A stretch of DNA of 64,000 bases from Candidatus Moraniibacteriota bacterium (GCA_942490825.1 CALNYG010000005.1:70240-134239), one strand, 5' to 3'; numbered from the stretch's first letter, positions 8,936 to 57,552 are shown. The notes: generated by a model not told the origin, from the sequence alone. Numbers and translations are program-made.

Positions 8936-8960
8936 AGGGTTGAAAATTTTCAACCCCTAC
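8936..8960 (-). repeat. REP-like GTAG hairpin
   Basis: The minus strand reads GTAGGGGTTGAAAATTTTCAACCCT, a GTAG followed by a perfect palindrome, immediately after the ftsK stop. Confidence 0.6.
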
Positions 8961-8978
8961 ATTGCAATGACGTATAAT

Positions 8979-11522
8979 TTAAGCTTGCCACTTATCCCTT
9001 TTCATTTGATCATCTTCAGGACTATCATATTCAGTATCTTTCGTACTAATTAAAACCTTTCTCGGTTTAGAACCATCAGGAGGACCAACCACACCATTAT
9101 CTTCCAAAAGATCAATAATCCTAGCCGCTCGAGCATAACCAACTCGCAATCTCCTTTGAATATAAGAAGTCGACGCCTTTTTTGCTTGCACAACCAAATC
9201 CTTAGCCTCTTCATACAAAGGCTCATCATTTTCCGCACCACCACTTTCATTACCACCAGTCACATTATCAAAATTAACAGCAAAAATTCCCGCAGGATTA
9301 GTAACTTTTACACCATCACCACTTTCAAATTCCAATTCATCTTCGCCAGTATCAAAATTCTGATTTTTAATAAAGTCAACCACTTTTTTAACCTCATGCT
9401 CTTCAATAAAAACACCTTGTAACCTCTGAGCACTCACACTATTCGGAGCAACAAAAAGCATATCACCATGACCAACTAATTTTTCCGCACCCAAGCTATC
9501 AATAATAGTTCGCGAATCAATTCCTGTCGCCACTCGCAAAGCAATTCTCGTCGGTAAGTTAGCCTTAATCAAACCAGTAATAACCTCAACACTCGGTCGT
9601 TGAGTAGAAACAATCAAATGAATTCCAATCGCCCGAGACATCTGTGCCAAACGAACAATCGCACCTTCCACTTCTTTTCCATGAGAAGCCATTAAGTCAG
9701 CCAACTCATCCATAACAATCACAATCATCGGTAAATTTTCCATCTCTTCAGTAATTTTTTTACCAGTTTCAGGGTCAGGATAAACTCGCATTTCACCAGA
9801 CTTCCTTTTTTCATTATATGATCCAATGTCTCGAGAGCCAGTTTCTTGCAACAATTTATAACGTCGTTCCATTTCAGAAATTGCCCATTTTAACGCATTC
9901 AACACTTTATCATTATCAACAATAACATCAGCCAGTAAATGAGGTATTCCATTGTACAAAGAAAGCTCAACTCGTTTTGGATCAACCAGAATCATTTTTA
10001 AATCTTCCGGAGAATTTTTGTAAAGTAGAGAAATTAAAATACTATTAATGGTTACCGATTTTCCTGCTCCAGTCGCTCCCGCCACCAAAAGGTGAGGCAT
10101 CTTTGCTAAATCAGCAATTATAAATTCCCCGTTAACATCTTTTCCTAAAGCTAAAGTAAGGGCACTACTCTGATTTTTAAACTGATTACTTTTAACTAAC
10201 TCCTGCATTCTTACAGCAGCAACTGATTTATTCGGAACTTCGATTCCAACTAAAGATTTTCCAGGGATTGGAGCTTCAATTCTAATCGGATGAGCCGCCA
10301 AAGCCAAAGCTAAATCTGCATTTAAAGAAAGTATTTTAGTTAACTTAACTCCACTCGGTGGTCGGAAACTATATCGGGTTACAGTCGGCCCAGTTACAAT
10401 ATCGTGCAATTCCACATTAATTCCAAAATTTTCAAGAGTTTCTTTAATGACATTTGCATTGGCGTTAACATCGCCACCTTTAGACTTTCCCTGACTTTTT
10501 TCTAAAAGATTCATTGGTGGAAATTTCCAGACAGAACTTTTTCGAGCTTTAGATTTTTGAGGAACCTCTTCAAAAACTTCTTCTTCCTCATATTCGTACT
10601 CATCTTCCTCAACCTCTTCTTTAATAACATTTTCTTTTACAACTTTAGGTTTTTCGTAAAAATCTTCATCACCAACAACTTTTTTTTCAATTTCAATATT
10701 ATTAAATTCTGCATCATCAAAATCTTCATCTCCACCAAATGGGTCTTGAGGAATTTCTTCGCTTTTTTTAATATTCTTTTTCGTCTTCGGAGCAGTTTTT
10801 TCATCTTCAATAATTTCGCCAGTTTCTTCATCATAATATTCATACTCATCTTCCTCACTTTCTTCAACAGGCTCTTCAACAGACTCTTCTTCATATTCGT
10901 ACTCTTCGTCTTCAAGTTCCTCTTCAACTTTTTTACTTTTCTTTTTCTTTCTTTTGAACAATCCTAAAAATTTATTACTTTGTTCTTTCGGCATTTTTTT
11001 CTGCATATCTGAAAAAGAAACGTTGTAAGTAATTATTACTCCGATTAAAATTGTAGCAAATAAAACTAAGATTCCTACTATTTTTCCTACAGCGACTGTA
11101 ATTAAATGAGCGATTAAATATCCGATGTATCCTCCGCCATTTCCTTCTTTGGCTACTTCAACAAAATTTTCAGGTTCAAAAGGTATTAAATGGAACAAAG
11201 CTAAAATGCTGAGAAAGGTTACAATTACGCCAATTATTTTAGTTACGTAAACAACAGTTGAATTTTTTTTAATTAAGACAATTCCGGCAATTGCAAAAAC
11301 CAGTGGTGATAAATATTTACCCCAACCAAAAACGTAGCCAACCAAATGAGTCAGCTTTTTTCCAACGATACCTGCCAGATCGAAAAATCCCAAAGCGAAT
11401 ATTAAAGCTAAAATAAATAAAAAAATCGCAAAGATGCTTCTTTTTGCATCTGTGCTTAAATTTAAGGAAATAAATCCCTCACCATCTCCTTCGTAATCTT
11501 TATTTTTGTTTTTTCTTGCCAT
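8979..11522 (-). CDS. ftsK: DNA translocase FtsK/SpoIIIE
   Basis: 847 aa. N-terminal TM helices, a very acidic low-complexity linker (EDEYEYEEE repeats), a motor domain with Walker A GATGAGKS, and a C-terminal gamma winged helix (TSYIQRRLRVGYARAARIIDLLE). Confidence 0.94.
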   Translation of the reverse strand: MARKNKNKDYEGDGEGFISLNLSTDAKRSIFAIFLFILALIFALGFFDLAGIVGKKLTHLVGYVFGWGKYLSPLVFAIAGIVLIKKNSTVVYVTKIIGVIVTFLSILALFHLIPFEPENFVEVAKEGNGGGYIGYLIAHLITVAVGKIVGILVLFATILIGVIITYNVSFSDMQKKMPKEQSNKFLGLFKRKKKKSKKVEEELEDEEYEYEEESVEEPVEESEEDEYEYYDEETGEIIEDEKTAPKTKKNIKKSEEIPQDPFGGDEDFDDAEFNNIEIEKKVVGDEDFYEKPKVVKENVIKEEVEEDEYEYEEEEVFEEVPQKSKARKSSVWKFPPMNLLEKSQGKSKGGDVNANANVIKETLENFGINVELHDIVTGPTVTRYSFRPPSGVKLTKILSLNADLALALAAHPIRIEAPIPGKSLVGIEVPNKSVAAVRMQELVKSNQFKNQSSALTLALGKDVNGEFIIADLAKMPHLLVAGATGAGKSVTINSILISLLYKNSPEDLKMILVDPKRVELSLYNGIPHLLADVIVDNDKVLNALKWAISEMERRYKLLQETGSRDIGSYNEKRKSGEMRVYPDPETGKKITEEMENLPMIVIVMDELADLMASHGKEVEGAIVRLAQMSRAIGIHLIVSTQRPSVEVITGLIKANLPTRIALRVATGIDSRTIIDSLGAEKLVGHGDMLFVAPNSVSAQRLQGVFIEEHEVKKVVDFIKNQNFDTGEDELEFESGDGVKVTNPAGIFAVNFDNVTGGNESGGAENDEPLYEEAKDLVVQAKKASTSYIQRRLRVGYARAARIIDLLEDNGVVGPPDGSKPRKVLISTKDTEYDSPEDDQMKRDKWQA

Positions 11523-11587
11523 ATAAATTCAATTTTAGCACAAAAGTCCTTTCTTGAAAATCATATAAACTTTTCAAAAGAAATAAA

Positions 11588-11800
11588 GTGCTCGCCGCAC
11601 GGGCTCTGATACACATATGTAGAAATGAATTGCAATTCATCGCTACTACTTAGCTGGTTCAATCTTGTAGATTGAACCAAATGTTTATTTCAATTAAAAG
11701 ATGATTACATGAACTTTTAAGGTAAATAGAAAATTAGAGCTTGGAATAAAAAATGGTTCAATCGAGGACGATTGAACCAACTGAGACTCGCCGCACGGGC
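11588..11800. repeat. mosaic repeat cluster
   Basis: Contains the 17-mer GTGCTCGCCGCACGGGC (11588-11604), a GTAG hairpin GTAGAAATGAATTGCAATTCATCGCTAC (11619-11646), a two-hairpin element (hairpins at 11656-11678 and 11755-11778) and a second 17-mer core (11787-11800). Confidence 0.75.
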
Positions 11801-12364: not shown

Positions 12365-12371
12365 CAACACC

Positions 12372-12821: not shown

Positions 12822-12832
12822 ATTTATTTCTC

Positions 12833-12860
12833 GTAGAAACGTTGCACTGCAACGTTTTAG
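12833..12860 (+). repeat. REP-like GTAG hairpin
   Basis: GTAGAAACGTTGCACTGCAACGTTTTAG, 12 nt after the smpB stop. Confidence 0.55.
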
Positions 12861-15192: not shown

Positions 15193-15303
15193 GTTTGCAT
15201 AATTTTAATTTAAATTGTGCTCGCCGCACGGGCTTTTCACTATTGAACATTTTCCGAAATTCTAAAAAATTCTCTGTAATTTTTACCGCCCTTTAAGTCT
15301 ACT

Positions 15304-17687: not shown

Positions 17688-17783
17688 GCCGGAATGGGTG
17701 TGTCAGAGATCACCCATTCCGACCTGTCCGCCAAATGGGCGGGAACGTTACAGAAGCAGTGGTCACGACACACTACTTCTGGC
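17688..17783. repeat. 97-bp palindromic element
   Basis: GCCGGAATGGGTGTGTCAGAGATCACC...GTGGTCACGACACACTACTTCTGGC has long inverted arms. Copies lie at 43135-43231 and 49631-49727 (inverted), with a fragment at 7021-7063. Confidence 0.75.
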
Positions 17784-17871: not shown

Positions 17872-18012
17872 GGTTCAGTCTTGTAGACTGAATTTCCTGT
17901 TTATCCCAATTTTTAAAATGTTCAACTAATTTAAACATTTAGTTCAATCTACAAGATTGAACTAACCCAAAAAAAGCCCGTGCGGCGAGCCTGCCCATCA
18001 GCAAGACAGGCG
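17872..18012. repeat. two-hairpin element fused to the 17-mer and a CCTG..CAGG hairpin module
   Basis: Contains hairpins TTCAGTCTTGTAGACTGAA (17872-17893) and GTTCAATCTACAAGATTGAAC (17941-17963), then AAAAAGCCCGTGCGGCGAGC (17976-17990), then CCTGCCCATCAGCAAGACAGG. Confidence 0.7.
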
Positions 18013-20076: not shown

Positions 20077-23000
20077 TTATAATTCACTTACATAGTACAA
20101 ATTAAAAACACTATCCCTAACAATTAGATCATCACTATTTGTAGTATTCATAACTTCAAGTTTAAAATTATCTCCAGCATTCGCATGTATTGTCATTGGT
20201 AAAGTAAAAGTCTGGAAGTTACTTACTCCTGATGTTGTAGCTCCAATTCTATATCCAACTGGAACTCCCTGAGTAATGTTATAAAGTCTAAGATAAAAAT
20301 CTTCTCCATTTCCACCTGATATTGTGATGGAAACATTTCCTACGTAATGACCAGCATTAATAAATGTCATTACATCATTTGATAAGCCAAATCCATTTGC
20401 TTCTCCTGAAAATAAATCATTTGTTGAATTAGTTAATTGTTCCCAAGTATCAACTGTACAATTAATAGTTTCCAATTTATTTTGAAATCCTCCATAAATA
20501 TAATAAATATTACTTTGTTTAAGTATTCCTCCAGTAATAATTACATCTCCATTTTCATCAATAACCATCCTTTCAACTCCAGCTGTATCAAACCTAATCT
20601 TATCTTCATCTGCACTTTCTTCAACTTGAATTTTAGTATCACCATCTGTATCACTTAAAGATAAGGCTGTGCTTCCAGAAATATCATCCTGCCAAGTCAA
20701 AGCACCAGATCCATCAGTTTTCAAAACCTGATTAGCTGAACCATCAGCTGTTGGAAGAGTATAATTTTTAAAAGAAATTAATCCATCATTTTTTACACTA
20801 AATAAATTAGCATTAGCACTATCATCAACTTTTAACGCATGAGCTGTGTCATCAGCGGTTGCACCTTTAATGTGAGTTTTAGCAGTGATAGAATTTGTTC
20901 CAATTCCTAAACTATCCGTTACATCATCCCAAAAGAAATTTGTATTATCTTCTGTTACTACTGAGCCTGAAGTAAATAAGATTGAACCCGCAGTAAATGA
21001 ACCTAGAGTATCAGTTAATCCTAAGAAAGTAGAAGTACCACCAGCATTATCATCCACATATTTTTTAGTAGCAGGTTCGTAATCTGCGTCAGGAGTAAAG
21101 GCATCAGTATTATCTAATTCAAGCACATTAGTTAAATCAGCTTTCAAATTCAAAGCAGTCTGAACAGCAGAGCTCACAGGTTTATCAGCGTCACTGGTAT
21201 TATCTACGTTTCCTAATCCTACATCAGATGAATCAACAGAATGAGGGTTTGTTGTTGTATCAGCCACATGACTATCCAATTGAGTATGTGTATTACTTCC
21301 AATATCAGTTAAAGAAGTATGTGATTTTGTAGTAAGATCAGCAATATCTGAAGTTGTTTTATCAACCTGTGCCCAAGTATAATCATTTGTTTGAGCAGTT
21401 ATATCTCCAGTTCTAGTAAATACGCTGGTCACTGCACCACTACTAATATTATCATCAACGTATTTTTTATTTGCCACTTGATAATCAGTTGTCGGAGCTG
21501 AACTTGGAGTTATAGAAAAACTTGAAAATGTCTTAACTCCAGCAACTGTCTGGGGATTTGTTAAATCAACAAAGTTTTGAGTTATTGAACCAGTCCCACC
21601 ATTTGCAATGGGTAATATACCAGTAACATCATCGGTTAAATCAATTTGGTTAGCAGTTATTTCTTGTCCTGATAAAGTTAAATAATCTTTTCCCGCTAAA
21701 GTTACAGCGTCATGTAATTGTGTAATATCAGCTTTCAAATTCAAAGCAGTCTGAACAGCAGTGCTCACAGGTTTATCAGCATCACTGGTATTATCAACAT
21801 TTCCCAATCCAACATCAGATGAGTCTACTGAATGAGGGTTTGTTGTAATATTTGCAATATGAGTATCAATAGTAGCATGATCGTTTGTTCCAATATTTTG
21901 AATATTAGCATGATCAATGCTTCCCTCAGTAAAATGAATACTCGAATCTCCAGTGTGAGAAGTTAAATCACCAGAACTCGCACTATTATCACTTATTGTA
22001 AAATCTGGATAAGTTCCTCCTAAAGTTACATTTGTGCCACCAGTAAAAGCTACTGTTTTATCGTAAAGATTAGTTGAGCCTTCCGTTAAGTCATCAGTTG
22101 TTTTAGAAGAAAAATTACTATCAAAGTTAGTAGAAAAATCTGTAATATTCAATTTCAAATTCAAAGCAGTTTGAACAGCTGAACTCACAGGTTTATCAGC
22201 ATCGCTAGTATTATCCACATTTCCTAATCCTACGTCAGATGAATCTACTGAATGTGGATTAGTTGTTGTATCAGCCACATGACTGTCCAATTGAGTATGT
22301 GTATTACTTCCAATATCAGTTAAAGAAGTGTGTGATTTTGTAGTAAGATCAGCAATATCTGAAGTTGTTTTATCAATTTGTGCCCAAGTGTAATCATTTG
22401 TTTGAGCAGTAACTACTCCAGTTCTTCCAAAAACACTAGTTATTGCACCACCAGAACCCACTAATTCATCCAGTGTCTCTAAAGCTTTTTGAACTGTATC
22501 ATCTAAAACACTAAGATTAGTATCAAAATTTGTAGTATCAAGATCTATTGTAGTTCCAGCTTGATTATGACTAGCTGGAGTAAACTCAGTCGGAACATCA
22601 TTTAAATCATTGTAAGATCCAGAAAAAGTTGAATAACCTGCAGTAGAATGATCTCCCCAACCAAAAGCAGTATCCCAATTACTAGCATTAGCTATTGCAG
22701 TTAAATCAGCTTTCAAATTCAAAGCAGTTTGAACAGCTGAACTCACAGGTTTATCAGCGTCACTGGTATTATCTACGTTTCCTAATCCTACGTCAGATGA
22801 ATCTACTGAATGTGGATTAGTTGTTGTATCAGCAACATGACTGTCCAATTGAGTATGTGTATTACTTCCAATATCAGTTAAAGAAGTGTGTGATTTTGTA
22901 GTAAGATCAGCAATATCTGAAGTTGTTTTATCAATTTGTGCCCAAGTGTAATCATTTGTTTGAGCAGTAACTACTCCAGTTCTTCCAAAAACACTAGTTA

Positions 23001-24528
23001 TTGCACCACCAGAACCCACTAATTCATCCAGTGTCTCTAAAGCTTTTTGAACTGTATCATCTAAAACACTAAGATTAGTATCAAAATTTGTAGTATCAAG
23101 ATCTATTGTAGTTCCAGCTTGATTATGACTAGCTGGAGTAAACTCAGTCGGAACATCATTTAAATCATTGTAAGATCCAGAAAAAGTTGAATAACCTGCA
23201 GTAGAATGATCTCCCCAACCAAAAGCAGTATCCCAATTACTAGCATTAGCTATTGCAGTTAGATCAGCTTTCAAATCCAAAGCAGTCTGAACAGCAGAGC
23301 TCACAGGTTTATCAGCGTCACTGGTATTATCTACGTTTCCTAATCCTACATCAGATGAATCAACTGAATGAGGGTTTGTTGTTGTGTCAGCAATATGAGT
23401 ATCAATAGTAGCATGATCATTTGTTCCAATATTTGATAATGCAGTATGATCTGTTACGCCTGCAGAATTATTAGTCCAACTTAAATCTCCTGATCCATCT
23501 GTAGTCAAAATCTGTCCAGAAGCTCCATCAGCACTTGGTAAACTTAGCACATCTAAAAATCCCGTTAAATCACCATGCTGAGAATTTGTTAAGTGATAAT
23601 ATTCGTCTGTTGCTCCGCCTTGAATATTATTTAAATCATTATGATCTGCAGTTCCAGCAGTCAAAGCTGATATATCAACAGTATTTCCAGTGGAAATAGT
23701 AATCTCGCCTGTACTGGAATTAAATGAAAGTGTTTGTGAATCTGTGTTTGTATCAGTATCAACATCAGCAGAACAAACAAAAGCACTTCCATTCCACTGA
23801 AGTTTATCAGTCCCGCTACAAGTCGGAGCATTTATAGAAACTTCTCCACTAGCTTCATTAAGTCCATCGCCTGCTGTAATACTGCTCATTCCACTAATAT
23901 CACCACAAGCCCATTGATCATCACCACCATCCCAATATAAAAAATCCCCATCATTCTCACATTCTAATTCACCTGAGCTATTTACATTTACACTATTATT
24001 ATCTAAGTCTCCAAAAACTGCATGTGTCGGTTTACGGCAATCCCATTCTTTTTCTCCTTCATGCCATTGTAAAATTCTATCATCATCAACACATCGTATT
24101 TGACCATCTTTAACTTTCACTGTTGTAGAATCATAATTAAAAGAAACATCATCAGCATCTTCAATATAAATCGTTTCAGTTATAGTTTTAGTTTCGACTA
24201 CATTTTGATTTTGTTGAGCTGAAGAAGAATTATTAGATGTATTTGATTCAGAAGTCGAATCATTTTTCTCAGTAGCTATTTCTTTATCATTTGAATTTAA
24301 AGAATCACTACCTTCTTCATTCAAAGAATTAGAAACAGAACTAAGAGTATCAGCCTCATCAGATTCATTATAATCGTTATCTTCTTTTCGAAGATTAAAT
24401 ATTATAATACCTCCAATTAACAATACAATGATAATTGCTGAAATCCATTTGGTGCTTGGACTAATTATATTCTCTTGATAGCTTTCTGGAATTTGTTTAG
24501 AAATAGAAGCTTTGTGTTTTGTGGGCAT
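20077..24528 (-). CDS. giant membrane-anchored surface protein with phage-tail-fibre-type repeats
   Basis: 1483 aa. N-terminal TM helix (WISAIIIVLLIGGIIIF) and a Ser/Asn-rich linker. Three copies of C..(D/G)..L.W.G....W.C. Five copies of TNPHSVDSSDVGLGNVDNTSDADKPVS.AVQTAL.LK, a GLGNVDNTSD.DKP motif known from phage tail fibre repeats. The C-terminal segment of about 150 aa is beta-rich. Confidence 0.85.
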   Translation of the reverse strand: MPTKHKASISKQIPESYQENIISPSTKWISAIIIVLLIGGIIIFNLRKEDNDYNESDEADTLSSVSNSLNEEGSDSLNSNDKEIATEKNDSTSESNTSNNSSSAQQNQNVVETKTITETIYIEDADDVSFNYDSTTVKVKDGQIRCVDDDRILQWHEGEKEWDCRKPTHAVFGDLDNNSVNVNSSGELECENDGDFLYWDGGDDQWACGDISGMSSITAGDGLNEASGEVSINAPTCSGTDKLQWNGSAFVCSADVDTDTNTDSQTLSFNSSTGEITISTGNTVDISALTAGTADHNDLNNIQGGATDEYYHLTNSQHGDLTGFLDVLSLPSADGASGQILTTDGSGDLSWTNNSAGVTDHTALSNIGTNDHATIDTHIADTTTNPHSVDSSDVGLGNVDNTSDADKPVSSAVQTALDLKADLTAIANASNWDTAFGWGDHSTAGYSTFSGSYNDLNDVPTEFTPASHNQAGTTIDLDTTNFDTNLSVLDDTVQKALETLDELVGSGGAITSVFGRTGVVTAQTNDYTWAQIDKTTSDIADLTTKSHTSLTDIGSNTHTQLDSHVADTTTNPHSVDSSDVGLGNVDNTSDADKPVSSAVQTALNLKADLTAIANASNWDTAFGWGDHSTAGYSTFSGSYNDLNDVPTEFTPASHNQAGTTIDLDTTNFDTNLSVLDDTVQKALETLDELVGSGGAITSVFGRTGVVTAQTNDYTWAQIDKTTSDIADLTTKSHTSLTDIGSNTHTQLDSHVADTTTNPHSVDSSDVGLGNVDNTSDADKPVSSAVQTALNLKLNITDFSTNFDSNFSSKTTDDLTEGSTNLYDKTVAFTGGTNVTLGGTYPDFTISDNSASSGDLTSHTGDSSIHFTEGSIDHANIQNIGTNDHATIDTHIANITTNPHSVDSSDVGLGNVDNTSDADKPVSTAVQTALNLKADITQLHDAVTLAGKDYLTLSGQEITANQIDLTDDVTGILPIANGGTGSITQNFVDLTNPQTVAGVKTFSSFSITPSSAPTTDYQVANKKYVDDNISSGAVTSVFTRTGDITAQTNDYTWAQVDKTTSDIADLTTKSHTSLTDIGSNTHTQLDSHVADTTTNPHSVDSSDVGLGNVDNTSDADKPVSSAVQTALNLKADLTNVLELDNTDAFTPDADYEPATKKYVDDNAGGTSTFLGLTDTLGSFTAGSILFTSGSVVTEDNTNFFWDDVTDSLGIGTNSITAKTHIKGATADDTAHALKVDDSANANLFSVKNDGLISFKNYTLPTADGSANQVLKTDGSGALTWQDDISGSTALSLSDTDGDTKIQVEESADEDKIRFDTAGVERMVIDENGDVIITGGILKQSNIYYIYGGFQNKLETINCTVDTWEQLTNSTNDLFSGEANGFGLSNDVMTFINAGHYVGNVSITISGGNGEDFYLRLYNITQGVPVGYRIGATTSGVSNFQTFTLPMTIHANAGDNFKLEVMNTTNSDDLIVRDSVFNLYYVSEL
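22155..23270. repeat. 2 x 558-bp near-identical tandem duplication inside the giant gene
   Basis: 22155-22712 and 22713-23270 differ at only a handful of positions, and more than 400 bp are identical by eye. Each unit encodes 186 aa in frame. More diverged partial copies lie at about 21130-21420, 21715-21850 and 23271-23400. Confidence 0.9.
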
Positions 24529-25898: not shown

Positions 25899-25938
25899 AA
25901 TCGGCGATTTTCTTTGAAAGAATATCGCCGATTTTTTT
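25899..25938. terminator. bidirectional terminator between convergent genes
   Basis: Stem AATCGGCGAT (25899-25908) pairs with ATCGCCGATT (25924-25933), followed by a T run. It abuts the ileS stop. Confidence 0.8.
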
Positions 25939-28900
25939 ATTTCTTAATCCGCACAACAATCTTCTCCCCATCAACATCCAATTCCTTTTCCAAATCAAAT
26001 TCCTCCAAAGTTCCCTTCTCAAATTTCTCTGCCAAAACCTCTTTTACAATCATTTCACCAAACTTCTCAAAAACTTCCTCACCACCTTGATAACTCACAT
26101 TAATTCTGTCATCAACTTGATAATCTGCATTTTTTCGCATCTGTTGAATATGACGAATAATTTCACGAGCCTGTCCTTCAAGTTTTAATTCAGGAGTAAT
26201 TTCTGTGTCCAAAACAATATCAGTTTCAAGATTCTCATTAAAAATAACTTCTTTAACATTTAATTCTTCCTTGATAATTTCTTGCATCTCTTCGTTAAAA
26301 TCTTTTTTCACAGTAACTTTACTCAATGGCTGACGAACTTTCAATTTATTTTGAGAACGTAATTGTAAACCTTCACTAATCACATCTCGTAAATTTTCAA
26401 CCTGTTCATTCAACTTTTCATCAATTAATTCTTCATTAGTCTCAGGAAACTCAGCTAAGTGTACAGACGAAAAATCTTTCGTCTCTACGCTATTCATCAA
26501 ATTTTTATAAACCTCTTCCGCCATAAAAGGAGTAAACGGTGCCATCACCTTTGAAAGCTCAACCAAAACATAGTGCAAAGTCGCATAGGCATCATTTTTA
26601 TCACCATCATCTTCACTCTTCCAAAAACGCTTTCTTGAACGACGAATGTACCAGTTTGAAAGATTATCAGTAAACTTCGGCAACAATCGAGCTGCTTTGT
26701 GCAGTTCGTAAGCTTCCATATGATTATTAAACTCTCGGATCAAAACTTGTAATTCAGACACAATCCACTTGTCCAATAAATTAGTCTTACCTTCAGCTGA
26801 AAAATTTTTCTCCGCTTCCCACTTATCAATATTCGCATAAAGCACAAAGAAAGAGTAAGAATTCCACAACATTCGCATCATTCCCCGAACCACTTCACTC
26901 ACATCTTTTTCAGAGAAATTCAAATTTTGAGCTGCCACCACCGGAGACGCCATCAAATAATATCGTATTGAATCCGCTCCATATTTTTCAAACATTTCCA
27001 TTGGATTAGGATAGTTTTGCAATTTCTTCGACATTTTCTTTCCATCCTCCGCTAAAACAATTCCGTTAGCAATTACATTTTTAAAAGCAGGCTTTCCTTT
27101 GATCGCTCCGGCAATTGTGTGTAAATAATAAAACCAAGCTCGAGTTTGATCGATTCCTTCGGCAATAAAATCTGCTGGAAAAGTATTTTCAAATTTTTCT
27201 TTATTTTCGAACGGATAATGTTTTTGTGCGTAGGGCATTGAACCAGAATCAAACCAAGTGTCTAAAACATCAGGAATTCGATGCATTTCCCCGCTACATT
27301 TTTCACATGGAAAAACAATTTTATCCACAACATGTTTATGCAAATCATCAATTTTTTCTCCACTGATTTTTTCTAAATCTGCAACATTTCCAAAAACTTT
27401 CATTTCTCCACATTCACATTTCCAAATCGGTATTGCTGACGCCCAAAAACGCTGACGAGAAATTGACCAATCTCGTGCTCCCTCCAACCAATTTCCAAAA
27501 CGCCCTTCTTTCAAATGGGCTGGTGACCAATTTACTTCTTTGGCAGTTTCTAAAAGTTTATCTTTTATTTTTGTTACGGCGATAAACCAAGAAGATGTTG
27601 CGTAATTTATCAACGGAGTGTCACAACGCCAACAATGTGGATAACTATGATCATAACTTTCAGAATTAAAAATTTTCTTTTCTTCTTCTAAATAATTTAC
27701 AATCATCTTATCGGCTTTTCTGATTTGCACAACCCCCTTTTTTTCAGGAAATCGTTCACTGAGATTTAATTTTGCAAACTCTTCAAATTCTTTTTCATTT
27801 TTTAATTCTTCTTTAAAATTTCCATCCATTCCTACATGTTGTACAAAAGGTAAGTTATTTTCTTTTCCTAAATTCATATCGTCTTCACCAAATGCTGGTG
27901 CGATGTGAACTACTCCTGTTCCATCTTCTGTAGTTACAAAATCTGCTCCGTAAACTTTCCAACCGTTTTCTCGATTTTCTAAACTTTCATTTTCTGAATA
28001 AGTATTGAAAAGAGGTTTGTATTTTTTCCCGATTAATTTTTCCCCTTTTAGCTCTTCAATGATTTTATATTCCGCTTCACCAAAAATTTCTTCTAATTTT
28101 GCTTTTGCTAAAATAAATCTTTCGCTAAAATCAATTTTAAAATTTGGCTCATTAGTAACACCTTTTTCAAAGAAATGTCCTTTATTTTCTTCCTTATGTA
28201 AATTTGCATTCAATTTCCCTCCTAGTAAAAGAAAGTGTTCTTCTTTTATAATATTTTCATCTGAATAAATAACATCAACCTTATTGCTTATTTTATTCTT
28301 TATTTTTTCAAAATCCAATTCAAAATCAGTATATCCAGAATTTTTAACCCAATCAGGATTTGTTGATGAAAAAGATTTGCCTGGGTAGGTTGGAGCAATC
28401 ATTGTTAAACTTTCAATTTTAACTTCTTTATTTTCAAGAAATTTTAAAAATGTACTTGATCCTAGGGAATGAACGATAACATGAGAATTATTAAAGTCAT
28501 ATTTTTCCAATAATTCTAAGTTTTCTTTTAAGTTTGGATTACTGTTATTCTTATGATCTATAATTGTGACATTATAACCATTTTTTTCTAATTTTTCTTT
28601 TAATTTTTGAAAATAAGAATCAGAAGCAAAAGCGTGCTTACCGGAAATCAAAAACACATTTTTATACCAGCTCTCTTTCTCAATTTTCACATAATCAATA
28701 TCCTCACCCACAGCCAATGCAACATTTCCCGGAAGAGTCCAAGGAGTAGTCGTCCACGCAAGAATAAAAGTATTCGGTTCATCAACCAATTCAAACTTCG
28801 CCGTTACCGATAAATCCTTAATATCCTGATAACCCTCCGCAACCTCAGACTGCGAAAGAGTCGTCTCACATCGAGGACAAATGTGCATTGAACGGTAACT

Positions 28901-29422
28901 TTCATAAACCAAGCCCTTATCAAAAAGTTCCTTAAAAACCCACCAAACAGATTCCATAAAATCCTTATCCATCGTTCGATAGGCATTTTCCATATCTGCC
29001 CAACGTCCCAAACGCTCGATCGCCTTTTCCCAATCATCAACATATCCCAAAACCTTACTTCTACACAACTCATTAAACTTATCCACACCCAATGCCTCAA
29101 TATCTTTCTTTTTCTGCGATCCCATTTCCTTTTCCACAATATTCTCAATCGGCAAACCGTGACAATCCCAACCCCACTTTCGCTCCACGTAAAAACCACG
29201 CATCGTCCAATATCGTGGCACAACGTCTTTCATAATACTTCCCACAAGATGCCCATAATGTGGCAACCCAGTCGCAAAAGGAGGTCCATCATAAAATGTA
29301 TATTCCTTCGCATCTTTTCGATTATCCAAAGATTTCTGAAAAGTTTTGTTTTCCTTCCAAAATTCAATTATTTCTTTTTCCATTTCAGGAAACTTTTGTC
29401 GTGATTCTACTTTTTTAAACAT
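25937..29422 (-). CDS. ileS: isoleucine--tRNA ligase (type 2) carrying an inserted serine-hydrolase-like domain
   Basis: 1161 aa. HIGH-type PHYGHLVG, KMSKKL, editing-domain motifs TTPWTLPGN and GTGVVHIAPAFGEDD, and HSYPHCWRCDTPLI are all present. In addition, an extra segment of about 180 aa (aa about 250-430) lies between DYVKIE and KYKPLF. Confidence 0.96.
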   Translation of the reverse strand: MFKKVESRQKFPEMEKEIIEFWKENKTFQKSLDNRKDAKEYTFYDGPPFATGLPHYGHLVGSIMKDVVPRYWTMRGFYVERKWGWDCHGLPIENIVEKEMGSQKKKDIEALGVDKFNELCRSKVLGYVDDWEKAIERLGRWADMENAYRTMDKDFMESVWWVFKELFDKGLVYESYRSMHICPRCETTLSQSEVAEGYQDIKDLSVTAKFELVDEPNTFILAWTTTPWTLPGNVALAVGEDIDYVKIEKESWYKNVFLISGKHAFASDSYFQKLKEKLEKNGYNVTIIDHKNNSNPNLKENLELLEKYDFNNSHVIVHSLGSSTFLKFLENKEVKIESLTMIAPTYPGKSFSSTNPDWVKNSGYTDFELDFEKIKNKISNKVDVIYSDENIIKEEHFLLLGGKLNANLHKEENKGHFFEKGVTNEPNFKIDFSERFILAKAKLEEIFGEAEYKIIEELKGEKLIGKKYKPLFNTYSENESLENRENGWKVYGADFVTTEDGTGVVHIAPAFGEDDMNLGKENNLPFVQHVGMDGNFKEELKNEKEFEEFAKLNLSERFPEKKGVVQIRKADKMIVNYLEEEKKIFNSESYDHSYPHCWRCDTPLINYATSSWFIAVTKIKDKLLETAKEVNWSPAHLKEGRFGNWLEGARDWSISRQRFWASAIPIWKCECGEMKVFGNVADLEKISGEKIDDLHKHVVDKIVFPCEKCSGEMHRIPDVLDTWFDSGSMPYAQKHYPFENKEKFENTFPADFIAEGIDQTRAWFYYLHTIAGAIKGKPAFKNVIANGIVLAEDGKKMSKKLQNYPNPMEMFEKYGADSIRYYLMASPVVAAQNLNFSEKDVSEVVRGMMRMLWNSYSFFVLYANIDKWEAEKNFSAEGKTNLLDKWIVSELQVLIREFNNHMEAYELHKAARLLPKFTDNLSNWYIRRSRKRFWKSEDDGDKNDAYATLHYVLVELSKVMAPFTPFMAEEVYKNLMNSVETKDFSSVHLAEFPETNEELIDEKLNEQVENLRDVISEGLQLRSQNKLKVRQPLSKVTVKKDFNEEMQEIIKEELNVKEVIFNENLETDIVLDTEITPELKLEGQAREIIRHIQQMRKNADYQVDDRINVSYQGGEEVFEKFGEMIVKEVLAEKFEKGTLEEFDLEKELDVDGEKIVVRIKK

Positions 29423-29870: not shown

Positions 29871-30494
29871 TTAAATTATTTTATTATTATTTTTAAATTC
29901 TAAATTTTCTTCATCAAATGACCATTTTAATGGATTCTCATAAATATATTGTTGTATCTTATTTAAAGATTTTTCATTTCTGATTATATGATCATAATAT
30001 CTGGGTTGCCATTTAAAATTGATTTGTTTTTGTGATTTGTTGATTTCAAATGAACATCTACCTTTAAACCAACGAATCATTGTTGCTAAATTTTCATGCA
30101 ACATTGGATTATGTTGTTTTGTAACACCGCCCATTTTTGTTGTACAAACGCGATTTATCGCGTTTCTTGTATTATCATCAACGGTATCATTGAAACGCGA
30201 TAAATCGGCGTTTCTACAATTTTTAATTCCAATAATTCCATGAATATGATTTGGCATAATTATAAATTCATCTAATTCTACATTATCAAAATGTTGTGGT
30301 ATTTCCAACCAAAATTTTTTTGCCTTTTTTCCAGTTTCATTTAAAGCTGTTTTTTCATTTTCGACTTTACCAAAAAAATATTGTTTGTCTTTTGTGCAGA
30401 CGGTTACGAAATAAAATCCATCATTGGAATAATCCCAATTTTGCAAACGATGTGATCCGATGCGGTATTTATTTTTGAATTTGGGTTGTTGCAT
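29871..30494 (-). CDS. REP-associated tyrosine transposase-like Y1 (HUH) transposase
   Basis: 207 aa. YRIGSHRLQNWDYSNDGFYFVTVCT is followed by the HUH motif MPNHIHGII and the C-terminal Tyr motif WQPRYYDHIIRN, matching the IS200-like/RAYT family. The ORF contains two copies of the REP palindrome AAACGCGAT..ATCGCGTTTC (30142-30169, 30192-30217). Confidence 0.82.
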   Translation of the reverse strand: MQQPKFKNKYRIGSHRLQNWDYSNDGFYFVTVCTKDKQYFFGKVENEKTALNETGKKAKKFWLEIPQHFDNVELDEFIIMPNHIHGIIGIKNCRNADLSRFNDTVDDNTRNAINRVCTTKMGGVTKQHNPMLHENLATMIRWFKGRCSFEINKSQKQINFKWQPRYYDHIIRNEKSLNKIQQYIYENPLKWSFDEENLEFKNNNKII

Positions 30495-30507: not shown

Positions 30508-30532
30508 GAAACGCGATGAATCGCGTTTCTAC
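30508..30532 (-). repeat. REP hairpin flanking the RAYT gene
   Basis: The minus strand reads GTAGAAACGCGATTCATCGCGTTTC, 13 nt upstream of the RAYT ATG. The same palindrome occurs at 38967-38992 and twice inside the RAYT ORF. Confidence 0.75.
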
Positions 30533-30548: not shown

Positions 30549-30745
30549 AAAAACAAAAAATCCCCAAACAAATAAATGTTTAAGGACGATTAAACGCGGT
30601 GCCACCTTAATTCGTTAAAAAATAACGCTCTCAATTTTAGTGATTTACGGACACTTACCGACAAGGTCTACTTAGCTAATGCTTTTCTGCTTGTATCCCC
30701 TGTTTTTCAACAGATCCAATGGTGATAGCCACTGTCAAAGGATTT
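30549..30745 (-). promoter_or_regulatory. T-box riboswitch leader (candidate Ile specifier)
   Basis: The minus strand at 30595-30612 reads AATTAAGGTGGCACCGCG, the T-box sequence. The antiterminator AAGG[UGGCACC]GCG...CGUCCUU is mutually exclusive with a terminator stem (30561-30570 pairing with 30577-30586) followed by U6. Upstream lie AGAAA and AGUAG Stem-I-like motifs, GCGUUA (F-box-like) and a candidate specifier AUC followed by A (30641-30644). Confidence 0.8.
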
Positions 30746-30873
30746 TATAATTGTACTCTATTTATACTATTTTTTTGGGTTAAACGCAAATTTTTGTAAC
30801 TTACAAACAAAATTAATAAACTCAAAATTTTATGAAATATGTTAAATAAACTTAAAAATGCCTAAATTTATAA

Positions 30874-32435: not shown

Positions 32436-32527
32436 GAAATTGATAACTTTTTAGTATCCTAAGTGTACAATGGACTGAGTATATTTTCAACTAGTGAAGG
32501 GATATTTAAAAAAAATTTTAAATTTTT

Positions 32528-38739: not shown

Positions 38740-39020
38740 GTGCTCGCCGCACGGGCTTTTGGAGTTCAAAGTTTTTAACCTCCATAAAAATTTATGATAG
38801 CCTTCCAGACATGTCATGCCGGAAGACAGAATTTATTCAAGAGCGTAGCGATTGATTTAAATTCGTCTATCCGGTATCTAGGAAACTATCAGAAAATAAC
38901 TAAATTTTAAAGTTTATAACTAATCTTAAAGCTTCCTAGATTCCGGATAAATTATTTTCTATCTATAAAACGCGATAAATCGACGTTTCTACAAAAGAAA
39001 ATATATTTTCCGGAGTGACA
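38740..39020. repeat. 17-mer plus GTCATGCCGG-type MITE carrying the REP palindrome
   Basis: GTGCTCGCCGCACGGGC lies at 38740-38756. The MITE spans 38813-39020 (ends GTCATGCCGGAAG and CCGGAGTGAC) and has AAAACGCGATAAATCGACGTTTCTAC inserted at 38967-38992. Confidence 0.75.
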
Positions 39021-39539: not shown

Positions 39540-40160
39540 TTCCGGTGAAATTAAACTTTCATCAAGAAATGTTTAAGGTTTTTCACCGGGGCCAAAGCCC
39601 CTAAATAATATTTTGGGTTTGGCACCCGGATCAGTTCGTATGCACGAACATGCTATTAGTTTACATCAAATCGTTTTAGTTTCGGGTGAAAAACTTTACT
39701 TTTTTAATGTCCAGCATGTATTTTCTTTGCATACTATTTTGTTCGCAGTTTCGCGCTGCATTTTCTTCCCATCCATCGGCTATTCGCCTGTTTTAAAAGA
39801 ACTGTTATTTTTTCTATTTATTTTTGTTTTGAAAAAATGTTTTTTGTTTTTGTTTTTTTTGTTGTAAGAATTGAAGTTGCGAAAATTTGTTAATTCTTAC
39901 GATAGAAAGACATTGCTTTCTATATAATTTTGGACAGGTAGATTTCCAATTACAAATAGGGGGATATTGTAATTGGAAATCTACCTACCGAATTATTATT
40001 CGATTATTTTTAGTTGTTAAAGAAGTTTGTTTTTGAAGTAATCTCTTCTCTACTTCAGTACCCTTATTATATCAACAAAAAATGTCAGGGTCAATTACAT
40101 GCACCCAAAACCTCGCAAACAAAGGACTTTCAACTATATTGCTTTTACCTTAATAAAAAC
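39540..40160 (-). ncRNA. rnpB: candidate RNase P RNA (bacterial type A-like, atypically expanded)
   Basis: The minus strand carries, in the correct order: GAAAGTCC (complement of 40124-40131), GGGTGCATGTAATTGACCC (40088-40106; compare GGGUGCCAGGUAAC), ACAGGCGAATAGCCGATGG (ending at 39773), CACCCGAAAC (39679-39688), AATAG...GTTC...ACTGATCCGGGTGCC (39621-39635; compare ACUGAACCCGGGUAGGC), and GGGGCTT (complement of 39596-39602), which can pair with AAG(U)CCUU as P4. A terminator lies at 39501-39528. Ends are uncertain, no clear P3 was found, and about 300 nt of extra hairpins sit in the P12 position. Confidence 0.45.
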
Positions 40161-42744: not shown

Positions 42745-42756
42745 ATAGACGATTAG

Positions 42757-43611
42757 AACGGTAGATTTTTAGATTGGTAGAGACATTACATTGCGATGTC
42801 TTTTTTAATAATTATGACAAGCGACCTTTTTTGTTTTTTGCGAGTCTCTAGAGTATGTCATTCCCGCGGAGGCGGGAATCCAGGATCTCAAAACTTTTAT
42901 TTATGTGAAAAACTAGAATTCATCTATAAACTTTTAATTTTATTATCCTAGATTCCGGATAAATAATTTTTTCACTACGTTACAAAATTATTTTCCGGAA
43001 TGACATGTCTGGGGGATTTGTTAATTTTGTAGGGGCAGTGTCTTGTGCCTGCCCTCCGATGAATAAAAAGTTTTGTGATGAGTGCGACCACGAGTAGAAA
43101 TTAATTGCAATTCATTTTTACAAATATACTTTCTGCCGGAATGGGTGTGTCGTAGACCACCCGTTTCGACCTGTCCGCCAAATCGGCGGGAACGTTTCGG
43201 AAGCAGTGGTCTACGACACACTACTTCCGGCATTTGAGAATTTATGAATTTTGTAGGGACAGTGCCTTGTGCCTATCCTGCTATGAACGAAAAGTTTTGT
43301 GATATTCTACGGGGGATTCTTCACTCCGCTATGCTACGTTCAGAATGACAGAAAAATTTAAAGTTATGTATCATAGCCCGTGCGGCGAGCACTTTATTTC
43401 TTTTTCTTAATGTTTCAAGTTATAATGATTACATTAAATATTTTTCTATGTCATTTCGACTGGAGCGTAGCAGAACAGAGAAATCTCAAAGCTCTAGGAT
43501 AATCCTAAACTTTTGAGATCCTCCAGGGGATATTCTCTACCTACGGCATTCATCTTATCTCTCCACTCCATATTTTAAAACTTCGTTTAAAAATATTCTG
43601 GTCGAGATGAC
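42757..43611. repeat. about 860-bp intergenic mosaic made almost entirely of repeat modules
   Basis: Modules in order: the GTAGATTTTTAGAT module and GTAG hairpin/terminator (42757-42802); a MITE (42857-43004); a GTAG class-D hairpin (43029-43057); GTAGAAATTAATTGCAATTCATTTTTAC (43094-43121); the 97-bp palindromic element (43135-43231); a GTAG class-D hairpin (43253-43281); an orphan MITE end CGTTCAGAATGAC (43337-43349); the 17-mer (43376-43392); and a MITE with GTCATTTCGAC/GTCGAGATGAC ends (43450-43611). Confidence 0.85.
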
Positions 43612-43647
43612 ATATTTAATATTTTTTTAAAAAAATAAAACAAAATT

Positions 43648-49544: not shown

Positions 49545-49814
49545 ACGTCATTGCGAGGAGCGACCATAGGGAGAGACGTGGCAATCTCGATAAGACTTGA
49601 AATAAATTTAAATATCGAAAAAAAACTTGTGCCGGAAGTAGTGTGTCGAAGACCACTGCTTTCGTAACATTCTTGCCGATTTGGCGGACAGGTCGAAACG
49701 GGTGGTCTAGCGACACACCTATTCCGGAAAAATATAACTTTTCGTTCATCATAGGGCAGGTACAAGACACTACCCCTACAATTCTGTAGTGAACGGTTTC
49801 AAACCGTTCACTAC
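49545..49814. repeat. mosaic repeat cluster
   Basis: Contains the MITE end CACGTCATTGCGAGGAG (49545-49560), the 97-bp palindromic element (49631-49727, inverted), a class-D hairpin ending CCCCTAC (49752-49778), and GTAGTGAACGGTTTCAAACCGTTCACTAC (49786-49814). Confidence 0.8.
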
Positions 49815-51345: not shown

Positions 51346-51420
51346 TATTTATAAAGATTAAATTTAAAACCACTTTAGAAATAAAGTGGTTTTTTATTTT
51401 TACAAAAAACTTTAATTGCT

Positions 51421-51598
51421 AGTTCAATTGTCCTCGATTGAACTATTTTTTTATCCCAAATTTTAAATTTTATAAAAAACTTAAAATGTAAAATGAATTT
51501 TTGAAGTGATATAAACAAGAAAGTTCAATCTACAAGATTGAACCAACACTAGAAGTTTAAAAATCCCGTGCGACAAGCCTACCTGTTCGGCAGACAGG
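51421..51598. repeat. two-hairpin element plus degenerate 17-mer plus CCTGTTCGGCAGACAGG hairpin
   Basis: Hairpin A AGTTCAATTGTCCTCGATTGAACT lies at 51421-51444 and hairpin B GTTCAATCTACAAGATTGAAC at 51523-51544. The element is roughly 90% identical by eye to 54329-54452. It is followed by TCCCGTGCGACAAGC (51565-51579). Confidence 0.8.
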
Positions 51599-54261: not shown

Positions 54262-54328
54262 CTCATTCAAAAACAAGACTTCATAAAACTCTGTGATTTT
54301 CACAGGGTTTTATTTTTAAAAAATTGCT

Positions 54329-54488
54329 AGTTCAATCGTCCTCGATTGAACTATTTTTTTATCCCAAATTTTAAATTTTATAAAAACCTTGAAATGTAAA
54401 ATGAATTTTTGAATTGATATAAACAGGAAGGTTCAATCTACAAGATTGAACCAAGGCTATAAGTTTAAAAAGCCCGTGCGGCGAGCAC
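54329..54488. repeat. two-hairpin element plus 17-mer
   Basis: Hairpin A AGTTCAATCGTCCTCGATTGAACT lies at 54329-54352, hairpin B GGTTCAATCTACAAGATTGAACC at 54430-54452, and GCCCGTGCGGCGAGCAC at 54472-54488. Confidence 0.8.
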
Positions 54489-54542
54489 TTTTTAATGCTA
54501 TAATTAGATTGAAGTAAGTTTAAACTTTATAAAAATACTGAA

Positions 54543-55505: not shown

Positions 55506-55628
55506 ATTTTTTTGAAAAATATATAAAATCAATTTTAGTTTTTCTGCCAGCTTAGAAAGAACTATTTTTTAGGTAATTTCAAAGAGGTCTATTGTACTTA
55601 AATTTTATTTTTAACCTTATAAAGACAA

Positions 55629-57512
55629 ATGAAAAAATTGCAAAAAAATGCTTATTTAATCGTGATTTTAGTGCTTTTAATTGGATCATTTATAATCTTA
55701 TCCCAAAGCAATAAAGAAAAAATTGAAGATGTTAATCTTACTCAGTTAGTTACAGAAATTAACGAAGAGCAAGTAAAAAAGATAGAAATTGAAGGTACAA
55801 AAGTTTCAATAGAATTGAATGACGAGACTAAACAAAAAGTTAACAAAGAACTAGACTCTTCTCTTTCAGATACTTTAGTTAATTTAGGTGCAAATAAAGA
55901 AACATTAAATAAAGTAGCAATTGAAAGTAAGACACCATCAAAAGGGGCGCTTTTTGCAGGGACTGTTTTGCCAATTCTTCTTCCACTACTTCTTATCGTT
56001 GGAGTTATTTGGTTTATGATGAAACAAGCGATGCGAGGCAATAAACAAGCACTTTCTTTCGGGAGTAGCAAAGCTCGAATGATTGATCCAAAAGATAAAA
56101 AGAAAAGGACTACTTTTAAAGATGTGGCTGGAAATAAAGAAGGAAAAGAAGAATTAGGTGAAGTGGTTGATTTCTTAAAAGAGCCAAAAAAATTCCAAAA
56201 GTTAGGTGCTAAAATTCCAAAAGGTGTATTATTGTTAGGAAAGCCTGGAACTGGTAAAACTTTGATGGCGAAAGCAGTGGCTGGTGAAGCTGGCGTTCCT
56301 TTCTTTTCAATTAGTGGTTCTGAATTTGTGGAAATGTTCGTTGGAGTAGGAGCAAGTCGAGTGCGTGATCTTTTCAAACAAGCAAAGAAAAAAGCTCCGG
56401 CAATTGTATTTATTGATGAGATTGATGCAGTGGGACGACATCGTGGAGCAGGTATGGGTGGCGGAAATGACGAAAGAGAACAAACTTTAAATCAGATTTT
56501 GGTAGAAATGGATGGTTTTGAGGATAATGCAAATGTAATTGTAGTGGCAGCAACTAACCGTCCGGATGTTTTAGATCCCGCTTTACTTCGACCAGGACGT
56601 TTCGATCGTCGAGTTACTATTGATCTTCCAGACATTAAAGATCGTATTGAAATTTTGAAAATCCACGCTCGCGGAAAAAAAATGGAAAAAGATGTTGATT
56701 TAGAACAAATCGCTCAAAGAACCCCTGGTTTTTCTGGAGCAGACTTGGCTAATTTAATGAATGAAGGTGCTTTGTTGGCAGGTAGAGAAAATCTTGAAGA
56801 AGTTAAAATGGACAATTTGATTGAAGCAATCGAAAAAGTTCTTCTTGGACCAGCTCGAAAGAGTCGTCATTTAGATGAAAAAGAGAAAAAAATCACAGCT
56901 TATCATGAAGCAGGACATGCTTTAGTTGGTGCAAGCTTAAAAAATGCTGATCCTGTTCATAAAGTTTCTATCATTTCTCGAGGTTCTGCAGGTGGTTATA
57001 CCCTGTCAGTTCCTGAAAAAGATCAGACTTTGCATTCAAAAGCGTACTTTTTAGATAGATTAGCAGTATTATTGGGTGGTTATGTAGTTGAAAAGATGGT
57101 TTTCGGTGATACTACAACTGGACCTTCTAGTGATTTAGAGAGAGCTACTCATACTGCTCGAAGTATTGTTACCCGATACGGAATGAGTGAATTGGGAGCG
57201 AGGACTTTTGGTAAAAATAATGATTTGGTTTTCTTAGGTAAAGATAGCACGGAAGAACGTGATTATTCTGATAAGACTGCTGAGCAAATTGATCGAGTGG
57301 TTTCTGAATTTATTGAAAATGCTCGAAAGGTTGCCGAAGGGGTTGTTACTGAAAAACGTGATCTGTTAGATAAAATTTCTAACGTTTTATTGGAAAAAGA
57401 GACTATTGAGAAAGATGAGTTTAATGCGATTATGGAGGGAAAAGAATATATTCCTGAAGTAAAAGTTGAAAAGGTTGAGAAAAGTGAAGAGGCTGAAGAA
57501 GATGTAAAATAG
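55629..57512 (+). CDS. ftsH: ATP-dependent zinc metalloprotease FtsH
   Basis: 627 aa. Two TM helices, the AAA+ motifs [18 protein letters not shown] and [12 protein letters not shown], the SRH, and the HEAGHALV zinc site. Confidence 0.97.
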
Positions 57513-57524
57513 GTTTGTTTATAT

Positions 57525-57552
57525 GTAGAGACAAGGTATGCCTTGTCTCTAC
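57525..57552 (+). repeat. REP-like GTAG...CTAC hairpin
   Basis: GTAGAGACAAGGTATGCCTTGTCTCTAC is a perfect 11-bp stem bracketed by GTAG/CTAC. It lies between ftsH and tRNA-Val. Confidence 0.7.

Follow-up and report, generated by a model that had tools for sequence, protein, structure and literature searches.

A probable subclass 2.4 REPtron on a Patescibacteria chromosome, with in-frame REP copies inside the transposase gene and a possible REP-alphaC specificity cassette

The closest described relatives of the locus analysed here, a REP-associated tyrosine transposase (RAYT, TnpA_REP) gene with its repetitive extragenic palindromes (REPs) in a 64,000-nt stretch of a Candidatus Moraniibacteriota genome (GCA_942490825.1, CALNYG010000005.1:70240-134239; hereafter the window, at its full length), are those of TnpA_REP subclass 2.4 (Quentin, Siguier, Chandler & Fichant 2018, PMC6006769), which equals RAYT group 4 (Bertels et al. 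2017, PMC5581495). The passages of PMC6006769 devoted to this subclass give the motifs NH[IFV]H, WQ and YIxNNP and a mean length of ~194 aa as its criteria, and describe an insertion between beta3 and alphaC that is very variable in length and sequence. Two REP types are assigned to it there, canonical long REPs, whose stem base consists of three G-C pairs, and 'double foot' REPs of the form GT[AG]G...C[TC]AC, and in-frame REPs within the tnpA_REP genes, between HuH and Y, are called 'a unique feature' of the subclass. Multiple REP families per genome and REPs within other genes have also been documented (PMC3733652). The hairpin-binding surface of E. coli TnpA_REP is made up of alphaB and alphaC, the latter lying in the REP minor groove with base-specific contacts (4ER8, PMC3479197); most hairpin contacts are to the backbone, and randomisation of the stem abolishes binding (PMC3479197).

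The window locus is very probably a REPtron of TnpA_REP subclass 2.4 (RAYT group 4) on a chromosome of the Patescibacteria (candidate phyla radiation, CPR), working by the mechanism proposed below. A preliminary description of the window had recognised the open reading frame (ORF) as a Y1/HUH RAYT, and this assignment is borne out by a match to Pfam PF01797 (Y1_Tnp; 31.5 bits, cut-off 23) and by an AlphaFold (AF2) model (predicted local distance difference test, pLDDT, 80.6) whose top fold match is PDB 4ER8, also the sole sequence homologue in PDB; 1916 homologues were found in all. The HUH motif is H83-I84-H85 (nt 30240-30248), preceded by N82 to give NHIH, which fits NH[IFV]H, and WQ is W162-Q163, with W162 invariant in alignment A1. 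The Tyr motif, Y183-IYENP, has one deviation from YIxNNP (E for N); Y183 and N187 are invariant in the same alignment and P188 nearly so. The loop between the HUH strand and alphaC (residues 93-123 or, more narrowly, 95-123) is the only low-confidence stretch of the model (pLDDT < 50), and a GT[AG]G-footed REP lies within 1 kb of the gene, 14 nt upstream at 30508-30532. As judged by sequence, the window RAYT agrees with subclass 2.4 on every point that sequence can address, and it is on this ground that a Patescibacteria gene is added to the known subclass.

The preliminary description had further placed one REP class, AAACGCGAT, beside the RAYT and twice in frame between its HUH and Tyr motifs, and so it is found. 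The two internal copies are read in a common frame 16 codons apart, as C-R-N-A-D-L-S-R-F and T-R-N-A-I-N-R-V-C-T-T, and the unit CR[ND]ADLSR[FL] is also present in the homologues P0002, P0012, P0021 and P0055, with variants in P0005, P0013 and P0052. One of the two explanations offered at that time, REP insertion without loss of frame, is the one that PMC6006769, in the passages concerned, gives for subclass 2.4; in line with the other, the internal copies may also have a self-recognition or regulatory role. In-gene REP copies are a published hallmark of the subclass, and this core finding is real and already known.

In-gene palindromes were followed across the family in a genome set (at least 80 loci of many phyla among the matches listed; 75 genes assessed) and in a second, independent set from a metagenome scan, which contained no relative above 54%; combined, the sets comprise 148 distinct genes. 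Among the matches listed, a palindrome lies 24-249 nt past the HUH codons in 61 of the 75 genes, and an internal palindrome is present in 127 genes (86%) of the combined set. Alignment of RAYT homologues had been proposed as a check on the internal copies, and in 120 protein homologues the loop is indeed hypervariable and tracks each gene's own REP, with zero to five copies of peptides such as VETRLIASLQ and CRDAINRVST. These two peptides are one palindrome, GTAGAGACGCGATTAATCGCGTCTCTAC, in two reading frames; even-length palindromes (genome set, matches listed) use the 'VET' frame in 40 cases, the 'RDA' frame in 16 and the frame with TAG in phase in none. The REP core of the gene itself is present in the flanks of 35 of the 61 loci, within 300 nt in 31 (again among the matches listed), and the cross-locus control for such flank matches is 10 times lower. 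Internal and external copies alike have the foot GTAGAAAC (variant letters AAAC) in the window, L081 and L085 and the foot GTAGAGAC (AGAC) in L082 and L084. Because these lineage-specific variants are common to both, the internal palindrome is a trait of the DNA whose evolution keeps pace with that of the extragenic REPs. Upstream of the related RAYT in L084 (1-174) stand about nine tandem 15-nt half-REP units (ATAAATCGAGACGCG), an array closed by a REP copy with a CTAC foot.

GTAG-footed hairpins are strongly enriched in the window, which holds about 18 of them in total. Five strict double-foot palindromes (GTAG...CTAC, at least 78% paired) were observed and 0.03 expected from 200 first-order Markov simulations, and GTAG followed by a 9-bp stem with at most one mismatch, on both strands, was found 17 times (1.0 expected, simulation maximum 5). 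At the feet of 176 hairpins GTAG occurs 24 times against 6.6 expected (Poisson p = 1.5e-7), second among all 4-mers after AAAA and the top enriched 4-mer that is not A/T only; the eleven other 4-mer permutations of its composition reach at most 10 each. Every sequence of the 17 units in the preliminary description lies where it had been placed, its estimate of about eight classes is fair (1 to 4 copies per class in the window), and the location is mostly intergenic as claimed, since the 15 units listed outside the RAYT all lie in non-coding DNA. The intragenic units number three, a pair in the RAYT gene and one, absent from that list, in ileS. Of the units on the list, roughly one in three is a degenerate copy. 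DNA folding gives strong hairpins at 49786, 57525, 39936, 30508, 26461, 12833, 30142, 30192 and 8936, and one-sided or near-foot hairpins of good quality are those at 8936, 12833, 30508, 30192, 30142, 38967 and 43029. One pair is arranged foot to foot (49752/49786), and two composite repeats (32515-32626, 43016-43127) each combine two REPs of different classes. The variety of classes in one window, which had been contrasted with 'classical' REP families, stands; the contrast itself was overstated, given that multiple families per genome are documented (PMC3733652) and that double-foot REPs and REPs with a GGG stem base (here 8936 and 43029) are both typical of subclass 2.4 in the passages of PMC6006769.

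By analogy with the E. coli TnpA_REP, the 207-aa HUH/Y1 enzyme would bind the folded single-stranded REP hairpin, read its 5' GTAG foot, and cut and rejoin single-stranded DNA (ssDNA), by which REPs would spread through intergenic DNA. Its putative cognate REP is GTAG-AAACGCGAT-NN-ATCGCGTTT-CTAC, with candidate copies upstream of the gene, at 38967 and, twice in frame, within the gene, where they fall in the predicted disordered loop between the HUH strand and alphaC, a place at which extra residues would be tolerated. The non-cognate hairpins would be REPs of other classes, each like the in-gene REP of another subclass 2.4 lineage. We infer enzymatic activity, mobility and further RAYT paralogues in this genome. 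Several points weigh against this interpretation of the locus. A single RAYT is known from this genome, in a 64-kb window; activity is argued from an E. coli enzyme that is only ~17% identical. The NCBIfam model NF047646 (REP_Tyr_transpos, the REP-associated tyrosine transposase equivalog) scores 68.5 bits at a cut-off of 80 and matches residues 134-191 only; the window RAYT is a relative of this equivalog and not a member. About five of the listed units (43094, 32528, 43253, 49752, 42778) are decayed (folding z > -2 or a short stem only), and the classes have 1-4 copies each, counted within 64 kb.

Across the family, REP class goes with helix alphaC. Identity over alphaC predicts a common REP class with an area under the curve (AUC) of 0.93 in the genome set (matches listed), where the N-terminal part gives 0.64 and the C-terminal part 0.57; in the metagenome set the three values are 0.94, 0.81 and 0.69. 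In a sliding window of 15 residues over the protein outside the REP-encoded loop, the AUC peaks at residues 129-153, with lesser peaks in alphaB (55-69) and the N-terminal arm (5-19), whereas equally variable segments reach ~0.5. The flanking REP, too, is best predicted by alphaC (0.77 vs 0.64 and 0.55), though the termini are physically nearer the flanks; among genes without an internal REP, the comparison of alphaC with flanking REP class comprises only 10 genes and 2 same-class pairs, too few to mean anything. That REP class tracks alphaC and not the rest of the protein, as these comparisons suggest, is, together with the mosaic genes described next, the part of our findings that may be new. 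The passages of PMC6006769 that were searched mention neither this coupling nor cassette mosaicism, no mention of mosaicism was found in PMC5581495 and PMC8266576 has nothing on subclass 2.4, an absence that is no proof of novelty.

Near-identical gene backbones hold different combinations of REP and alphaC. In the orthologous locus of a related organism (L085), the 3' part of the T-box, the upstream REP and the downstream ileS are kept, and the upstream REP, GTAGAAACGCGATTCATCGCGTTT, is near-identical to 30508-30532 (one terminal mismatch). The RAYT gene of this locus is ~87% identical to that of the window in DNA on both sides but <40% identical over ~240 nt that cover the loop REP, here GTAGAAACGCAGCAATGCTGCGTTTCTAC, and alphaC. 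The cassette of its protein (P0003) is nearest to those of P0022 and L019, with which it has the REP in common, and its flanks are nearest to P0001 and P0002. A Flavobacteriia backbone with flanks 80-86% identical likewise holds three different cassettes. In L087, two RAYT paralogues 2.5 kb apart (2399-2896 and 4992-5618) have a similar C-terminal tail and different alphaC, and the 5'-truncated one has the neighbouring gene's REP in perfect copy, adjoining a half REP of the GTTGC type. A REP can therefore also enter the loop by plain insertion.

We see even chances that a specificity cassette is formed in subclass 2.4 by the in-gene REP and alphaC, with a minor part played by alphaB and the N-terminal arm; in it alphaC would set the REP stem recognised, and recombination would move it as a unit between near-identical backbones within and across phyla. 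The internal REPs would then not be passive but a functional unit with the adjoining alphaC, exchangeable as such, and could serve as barcode, landing pad or cis-regulatory hairpin; the arguments on this view as a whole seem to us equally balanced. It is favoured by the palindrome being kept at the same place in most of the 148 genes, the alphaC signal in two independent sets and its peak, the prediction of the flanking REP, the divergence of L085 over REP and alphaC, phylogenetic incongruence, and the contact of alphaC with the REP minor groove in 4ER8 (PMC3479197). Tight physical linkage of REP and alphaC would by itself give part of the association, however; L087 shows that the loop of a gene whose alphaC is of another kind can receive the REP of a neighbouring gene by mere insertion, and specificity in subclass 2.4 is argued from sequence comparison and from the E. 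coli analogy.

The other REP classes of the window have counterparts inside RAYT genes elsewhere: AGACAAGG (57525-57552) resembles the internal REPs of L022, L052 and L080, GAACGGTTT (49786-49814) that of L020 and GGGGCAG (43029-43057) that of L071, and among the matches listed no internal REP is more frequent in other RAYT genes than the one with the ACGTTGCA core. Class density in the window is about twice that at other loci (1.56 vs 0.76 classes per 10 kb), and some Patescibacteria loci have three classes in 14-20 kb. A tblastn search with 196 family members gave no second RAYT or RAYT pseudogene within the 64-kb window, only noise and the REP-encoded peptide of ileS. The earlier observation of many classes beside one RAYT is thus correct for the window; that one RAYT serves eight classes does not follow, because the view is limited to 64 kb. 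The 112-nt composite repeats 32515-32626 and 43016-43127 had also been considered as RAYT gene remnants, an idea dropped because the same search gave only noise. Most likely, to go by these resemblances, the other classes are substrates or relics of RAYT paralogues with other REP and alphaC cassettes outside the window. It is improbable that the single window RAYT is promiscuous and mobilises all classes, recognising the GTAG foot and hairpin shape only: the lone RAYT in 64 kb, the predominance of backbone contacts in E. coli (PMC3479197) and a GTAGARAC foot common to several classes would fit such an enzyme, but REP class co-varies tightly with alphaC across the family, stem randomisation abolishes E. 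coli binding (PMC3479197) and related genomes have RAYT variants with other cassettes.

Two further explanations deserve hardly any credence. That intrinsic terminators of the usual kind in an AT-rich genome account for the hairpins, the GTAG feet being coincidental, would suit the units that start 12-34 nt past stop codons and the T-run after 42778, which may simply be a terminator, but the other units have no T-run apart from a short TTTT at 12833, and the GTAG enrichment together with identical palindromes inside RAYT genes of other phyla essentially refutes it. That protein-level selection on a conserved peptide motif gave rise to the internal palindromes as a side effect, as recurrent RDAINRVST-like peptides in many homologues might suggest, is just as remote, and it is essentially refuted by the fact that one DNA palindrome is read in two frames to give unrelated peptides (VETRLIASL, RDAINRVST). 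Genes moreover differ in copy number (0 to 5), disorder is predicted for the region, and where the extragenic REP differs in sequence the palindrome differs with it.

The coordinates of all features are collected in Table 1. The RAYT gene lies inside an ileS leader-gene junction, since a T-box leader and terminator directly precede the order REP-RAYT-ORF137-ileS, an arrangement that is the same in L085. The leader contains the T-box motif AAGGUGGCACCGCG; posterior probabilities of the cmscan alignment are low in stem I, and the specifier codon could not be read with confidence. The 137-aa ORF between RAYT and ileS has no Pfam match, and ileS is presumably regulated by the T-box upstream of the RAYT gene. 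Within ileS (25937-29422, minus strand), VETKDFSSV is an in-frame insert of 7 aa relative to homologues, most of which in Patescibacteria read KNLT-GEE-SVHL at this site. Other Patescibacteria isoleucyl-tRNA synthetases (IleRS) have inserts here that resemble translated repeats (VGVETRLIASLQVPE in P0157, PPLRGTSP..RGGG, ..GEGWGEV, HSGLDPES..MLKQVQHDK, LRHSREIGNP), and the site looks like an insertion hot spot comparable to those of Rickettsia palindromic elements (RPEs). The IleRS of the window, 1161 aa long, has an extra ~150 aa at ~28220-28670 (residues ~250-400, ..HVIVHSLGSSTFLKFLE..), which look like an inserted domain of alpha/beta-hydrolase type.

The nearest ileS homologues are from Patescibacteria (top identity 65%). 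The window has a G+C content of ~31%, ~22% of its DNA is non-coding, and its housekeeping genes include ftsK, ftsH, ileS, a tmRNA gene and two tRNA genes. A minus-strand ORF (20077-24528, 1483 aa) contains internal tandem repeats of 558 nt that are up to 98% identical (repeat families D1 and D2). The intergenic DNA is a patchwork of small palindromic modules. A second repeat family, unrelated to the REPs, consists of GGTTCAATC-N3-4-GATTGAACC hairpin pairs ~100 nt apart (11655-11779, 17939-17965, 51414-51578, 54322-54486) within a 165-nt repeat, the copies at 51414 and 54322 being 93% identical. The short motif GCCCGTGCGGCGAGC occurs in either orientation in at least nine intergenic regions, often adjoining REPs. 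A 40-77-nt repeat, CCGGAATGGGTGTGTC..GACCACCC.TTCCG (7021-7060, 17688-17764, 43135-43211, 49632-49671; copies at 17688 and 43135 90% identical), alternates with REPs in the 900-nt intergenic region 42745-43647. Further small palindromic elements are gtcattcccgcggaggcgggaatcc at 42857-42885, gtcatttcgactggagcgtagc..gagaaatctc at 43450-43487 and gtcattgcgaggagcgacc..gtggcaatctcg at 49547-49589; elements like these occur in many phyla.

Table 1. Positions of the RAYT gene, the REPs and neighbouring elements, counted from the first nucleotide of the window
Feature	Position	Strand	Evidence
RAYT / TnpA_REP gene, 207 aa	29871-30494	-	ORF, Pfam, AF2 model
Codons of helix alphaC, residues 136-154, LATMIRWFKGRCSFEINKS	30033-30089	-	AF2 secondary structure, sliding-window AUC profile
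Internal REP copy 1, coding strand GTAGAAACGCCGATTTATCGCGTTTC, encodes (C)RNADLSRF, 1-nt indel in palindrome	30192-30217	-	-7.3 kcal/mol, z = -3.8
Internal REP copy 2, coding strand CAAGAAACGCGATAAATCGCGTTTGTAC, encodes TRNAINRVCT, both feet degenerate	30142-30169	-	-8.5 kcal/mol, z = -4.65
Putative cognate REP, 14 nt upstream of RAYT start codon, GTAGAAACGCGATTCATCGCGTTTC on minus strand	30508-30532	-	-10.2 kcal/mol
Remote AAACGCGAT-class copy, 1 indel	38967-38992	-	sequence, fold
Double-foot REP, GAATTGCAATTC class	11619-11646	.	sequence, palindrome scan, fold
Double-foot REP, GAATTGCAATTC class, in 112-nt composite repeat 32515-32626	32593-32620	.	fold z = -6.1
Decayed GAATTGCAATTC-class copy, in composite repeat 43016-43127	43094-43121	+	fold z = -0.5
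REP, ACGTTGCA class, 12 nt past stop codon, upstream of tmRNA gene, short TTTT	12833-12860	+	fold
Double-foot REP GTAGAGACAAGGTATGCCTTGTCTCTAC, between ftsH and tRNA-Val	57525-57552	.	-12.7 kcal/mol, z = -10
Double-foot REP GTAGTGAACGGTTTCAAACCGTTCACTAC	49786-49814	.	-14.7 kcal/mol
Decayed canonical long REP GTAG-GGGCAG, foot to foot with 49786	49752-49778	-	sequence, fold
Canonical long REP GTAG-GGGGCAG...CTGCCC (GGG/CCC stem base)	43029-43057	+	sequence, fold
Decayed GGGCAG-class copy	43253-43281	+	sequence, fold
Decayed GGGCAG-class copy	32528-32558	+	sequence, fold
Long hairpin, perfect 20-bp stem, GTAG/CTAC within stem base (palindrome 39938-39984), class uncertain	39936-39986	.	-20.2 kcal/mol
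Canonical long REP GTAG + GGGTTGAAAATTTTCAACCC, 19 nt past ftsK stop codon	8936-8960	-	sequence, fold
Weak GTAGAGAC... hairpin, then T-run	42778-42802	+	sequence, fold
REP-like double-foot palindrome in ileS, coding strand GTAGAGACGAAAGATTTTTCGTCTGTAC, encodes VETKDFSSV	26461-26488	-	hairpin scan, palindrome scan, homologue alignment, fold
T-box leader, terminator directly before REP-RAYT-ORF137-ileS	30579-30775	-	Rfam RF00230 49.8 bits (gathering score 93), E = 3.8e-10
Motif GCCCGTGCGGCGAGC sites	2491-2511, 8849-8873, 11588-11608, 15217-15237, 17975-17999, 32634-32662, 38740-38760, 43375-43399, 54471-54495		

The direct value of the locus is one of annotation, as it extends subclass 2.4 to a Patescibacteria genome, and in-gene REPs explain why 'VETRLIASL' and 'RDAINRVST' peptides are met with repeatedly, among them those inserted in frame into ileS and other housekeeping genes. 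If REP and alphaC do form a cassette, the substrate of a RAYT could be read from its gene alone and REP-RAYT pairs predicted from gene sequence, and the several REP classes of this genome would stand for several cassette variants. The family would then offer a natural, sequence-readable pairing of a helix with ssDNA hairpins over more than 100 variants, REP specificity of HUH/Y1 enzymes would be directly testable by alphaC swaps, and domesticated transposases could be said to diversify via cassette exchange.

Among known systems, TnpA of the IS200/IS605 family (IS608, ISDra2) has the same fold as the window RAYT, and subterminal hairpins with a 4-nt guide are a further likeness, but these elements are genuine insertion sequences, bounded by a left and a right end and usually equipped with tnpB, whereas the window RAYT is apparently single-copy in 64 kb and accompanied by dispersed REPs. 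RPEs and intragenic REPs (PMC3733652) are, like the inserts in the RAYT loop and at the ileS site, in-frame palindromic inserts at permissive sites of coding genes; RPEs are longer (~100-150 bp) and have no link to a RAYT, whereas the inserts of the window are ~28-nt REPs and one of their host genes is the transposase itself. The E. coli TnpA_REP (RAYT group 2 / subclass 2.2, REP/BIME, 4ER8) has the HUH/Y1 fold in common with the window RAYT at ~17% identity, and REPs of both have a GTAG foot beside an imperfect palindrome, but only the E. coli system has a short beta3-alphaC loop, no in-gene REP, bulged single-foot REPs and a C-terminal inhibitory tail. Closest are the subclass 2.4 REPtrons, which, in the passages that describe them, differ from the window in its Patescibacteria host, in the position of the RAYT gene between a T-box leader and ileS and in the foot, AT-shifted to GTAGAAAC in the window and GTAGAGAC in subclass 2.4, and which agree with it in motifs, a length of ~200 aa, a hypervariable beta3-alphaC insert, GTAG REPs near the gene, in-frame REPs and a patchy occurrence across phyla.

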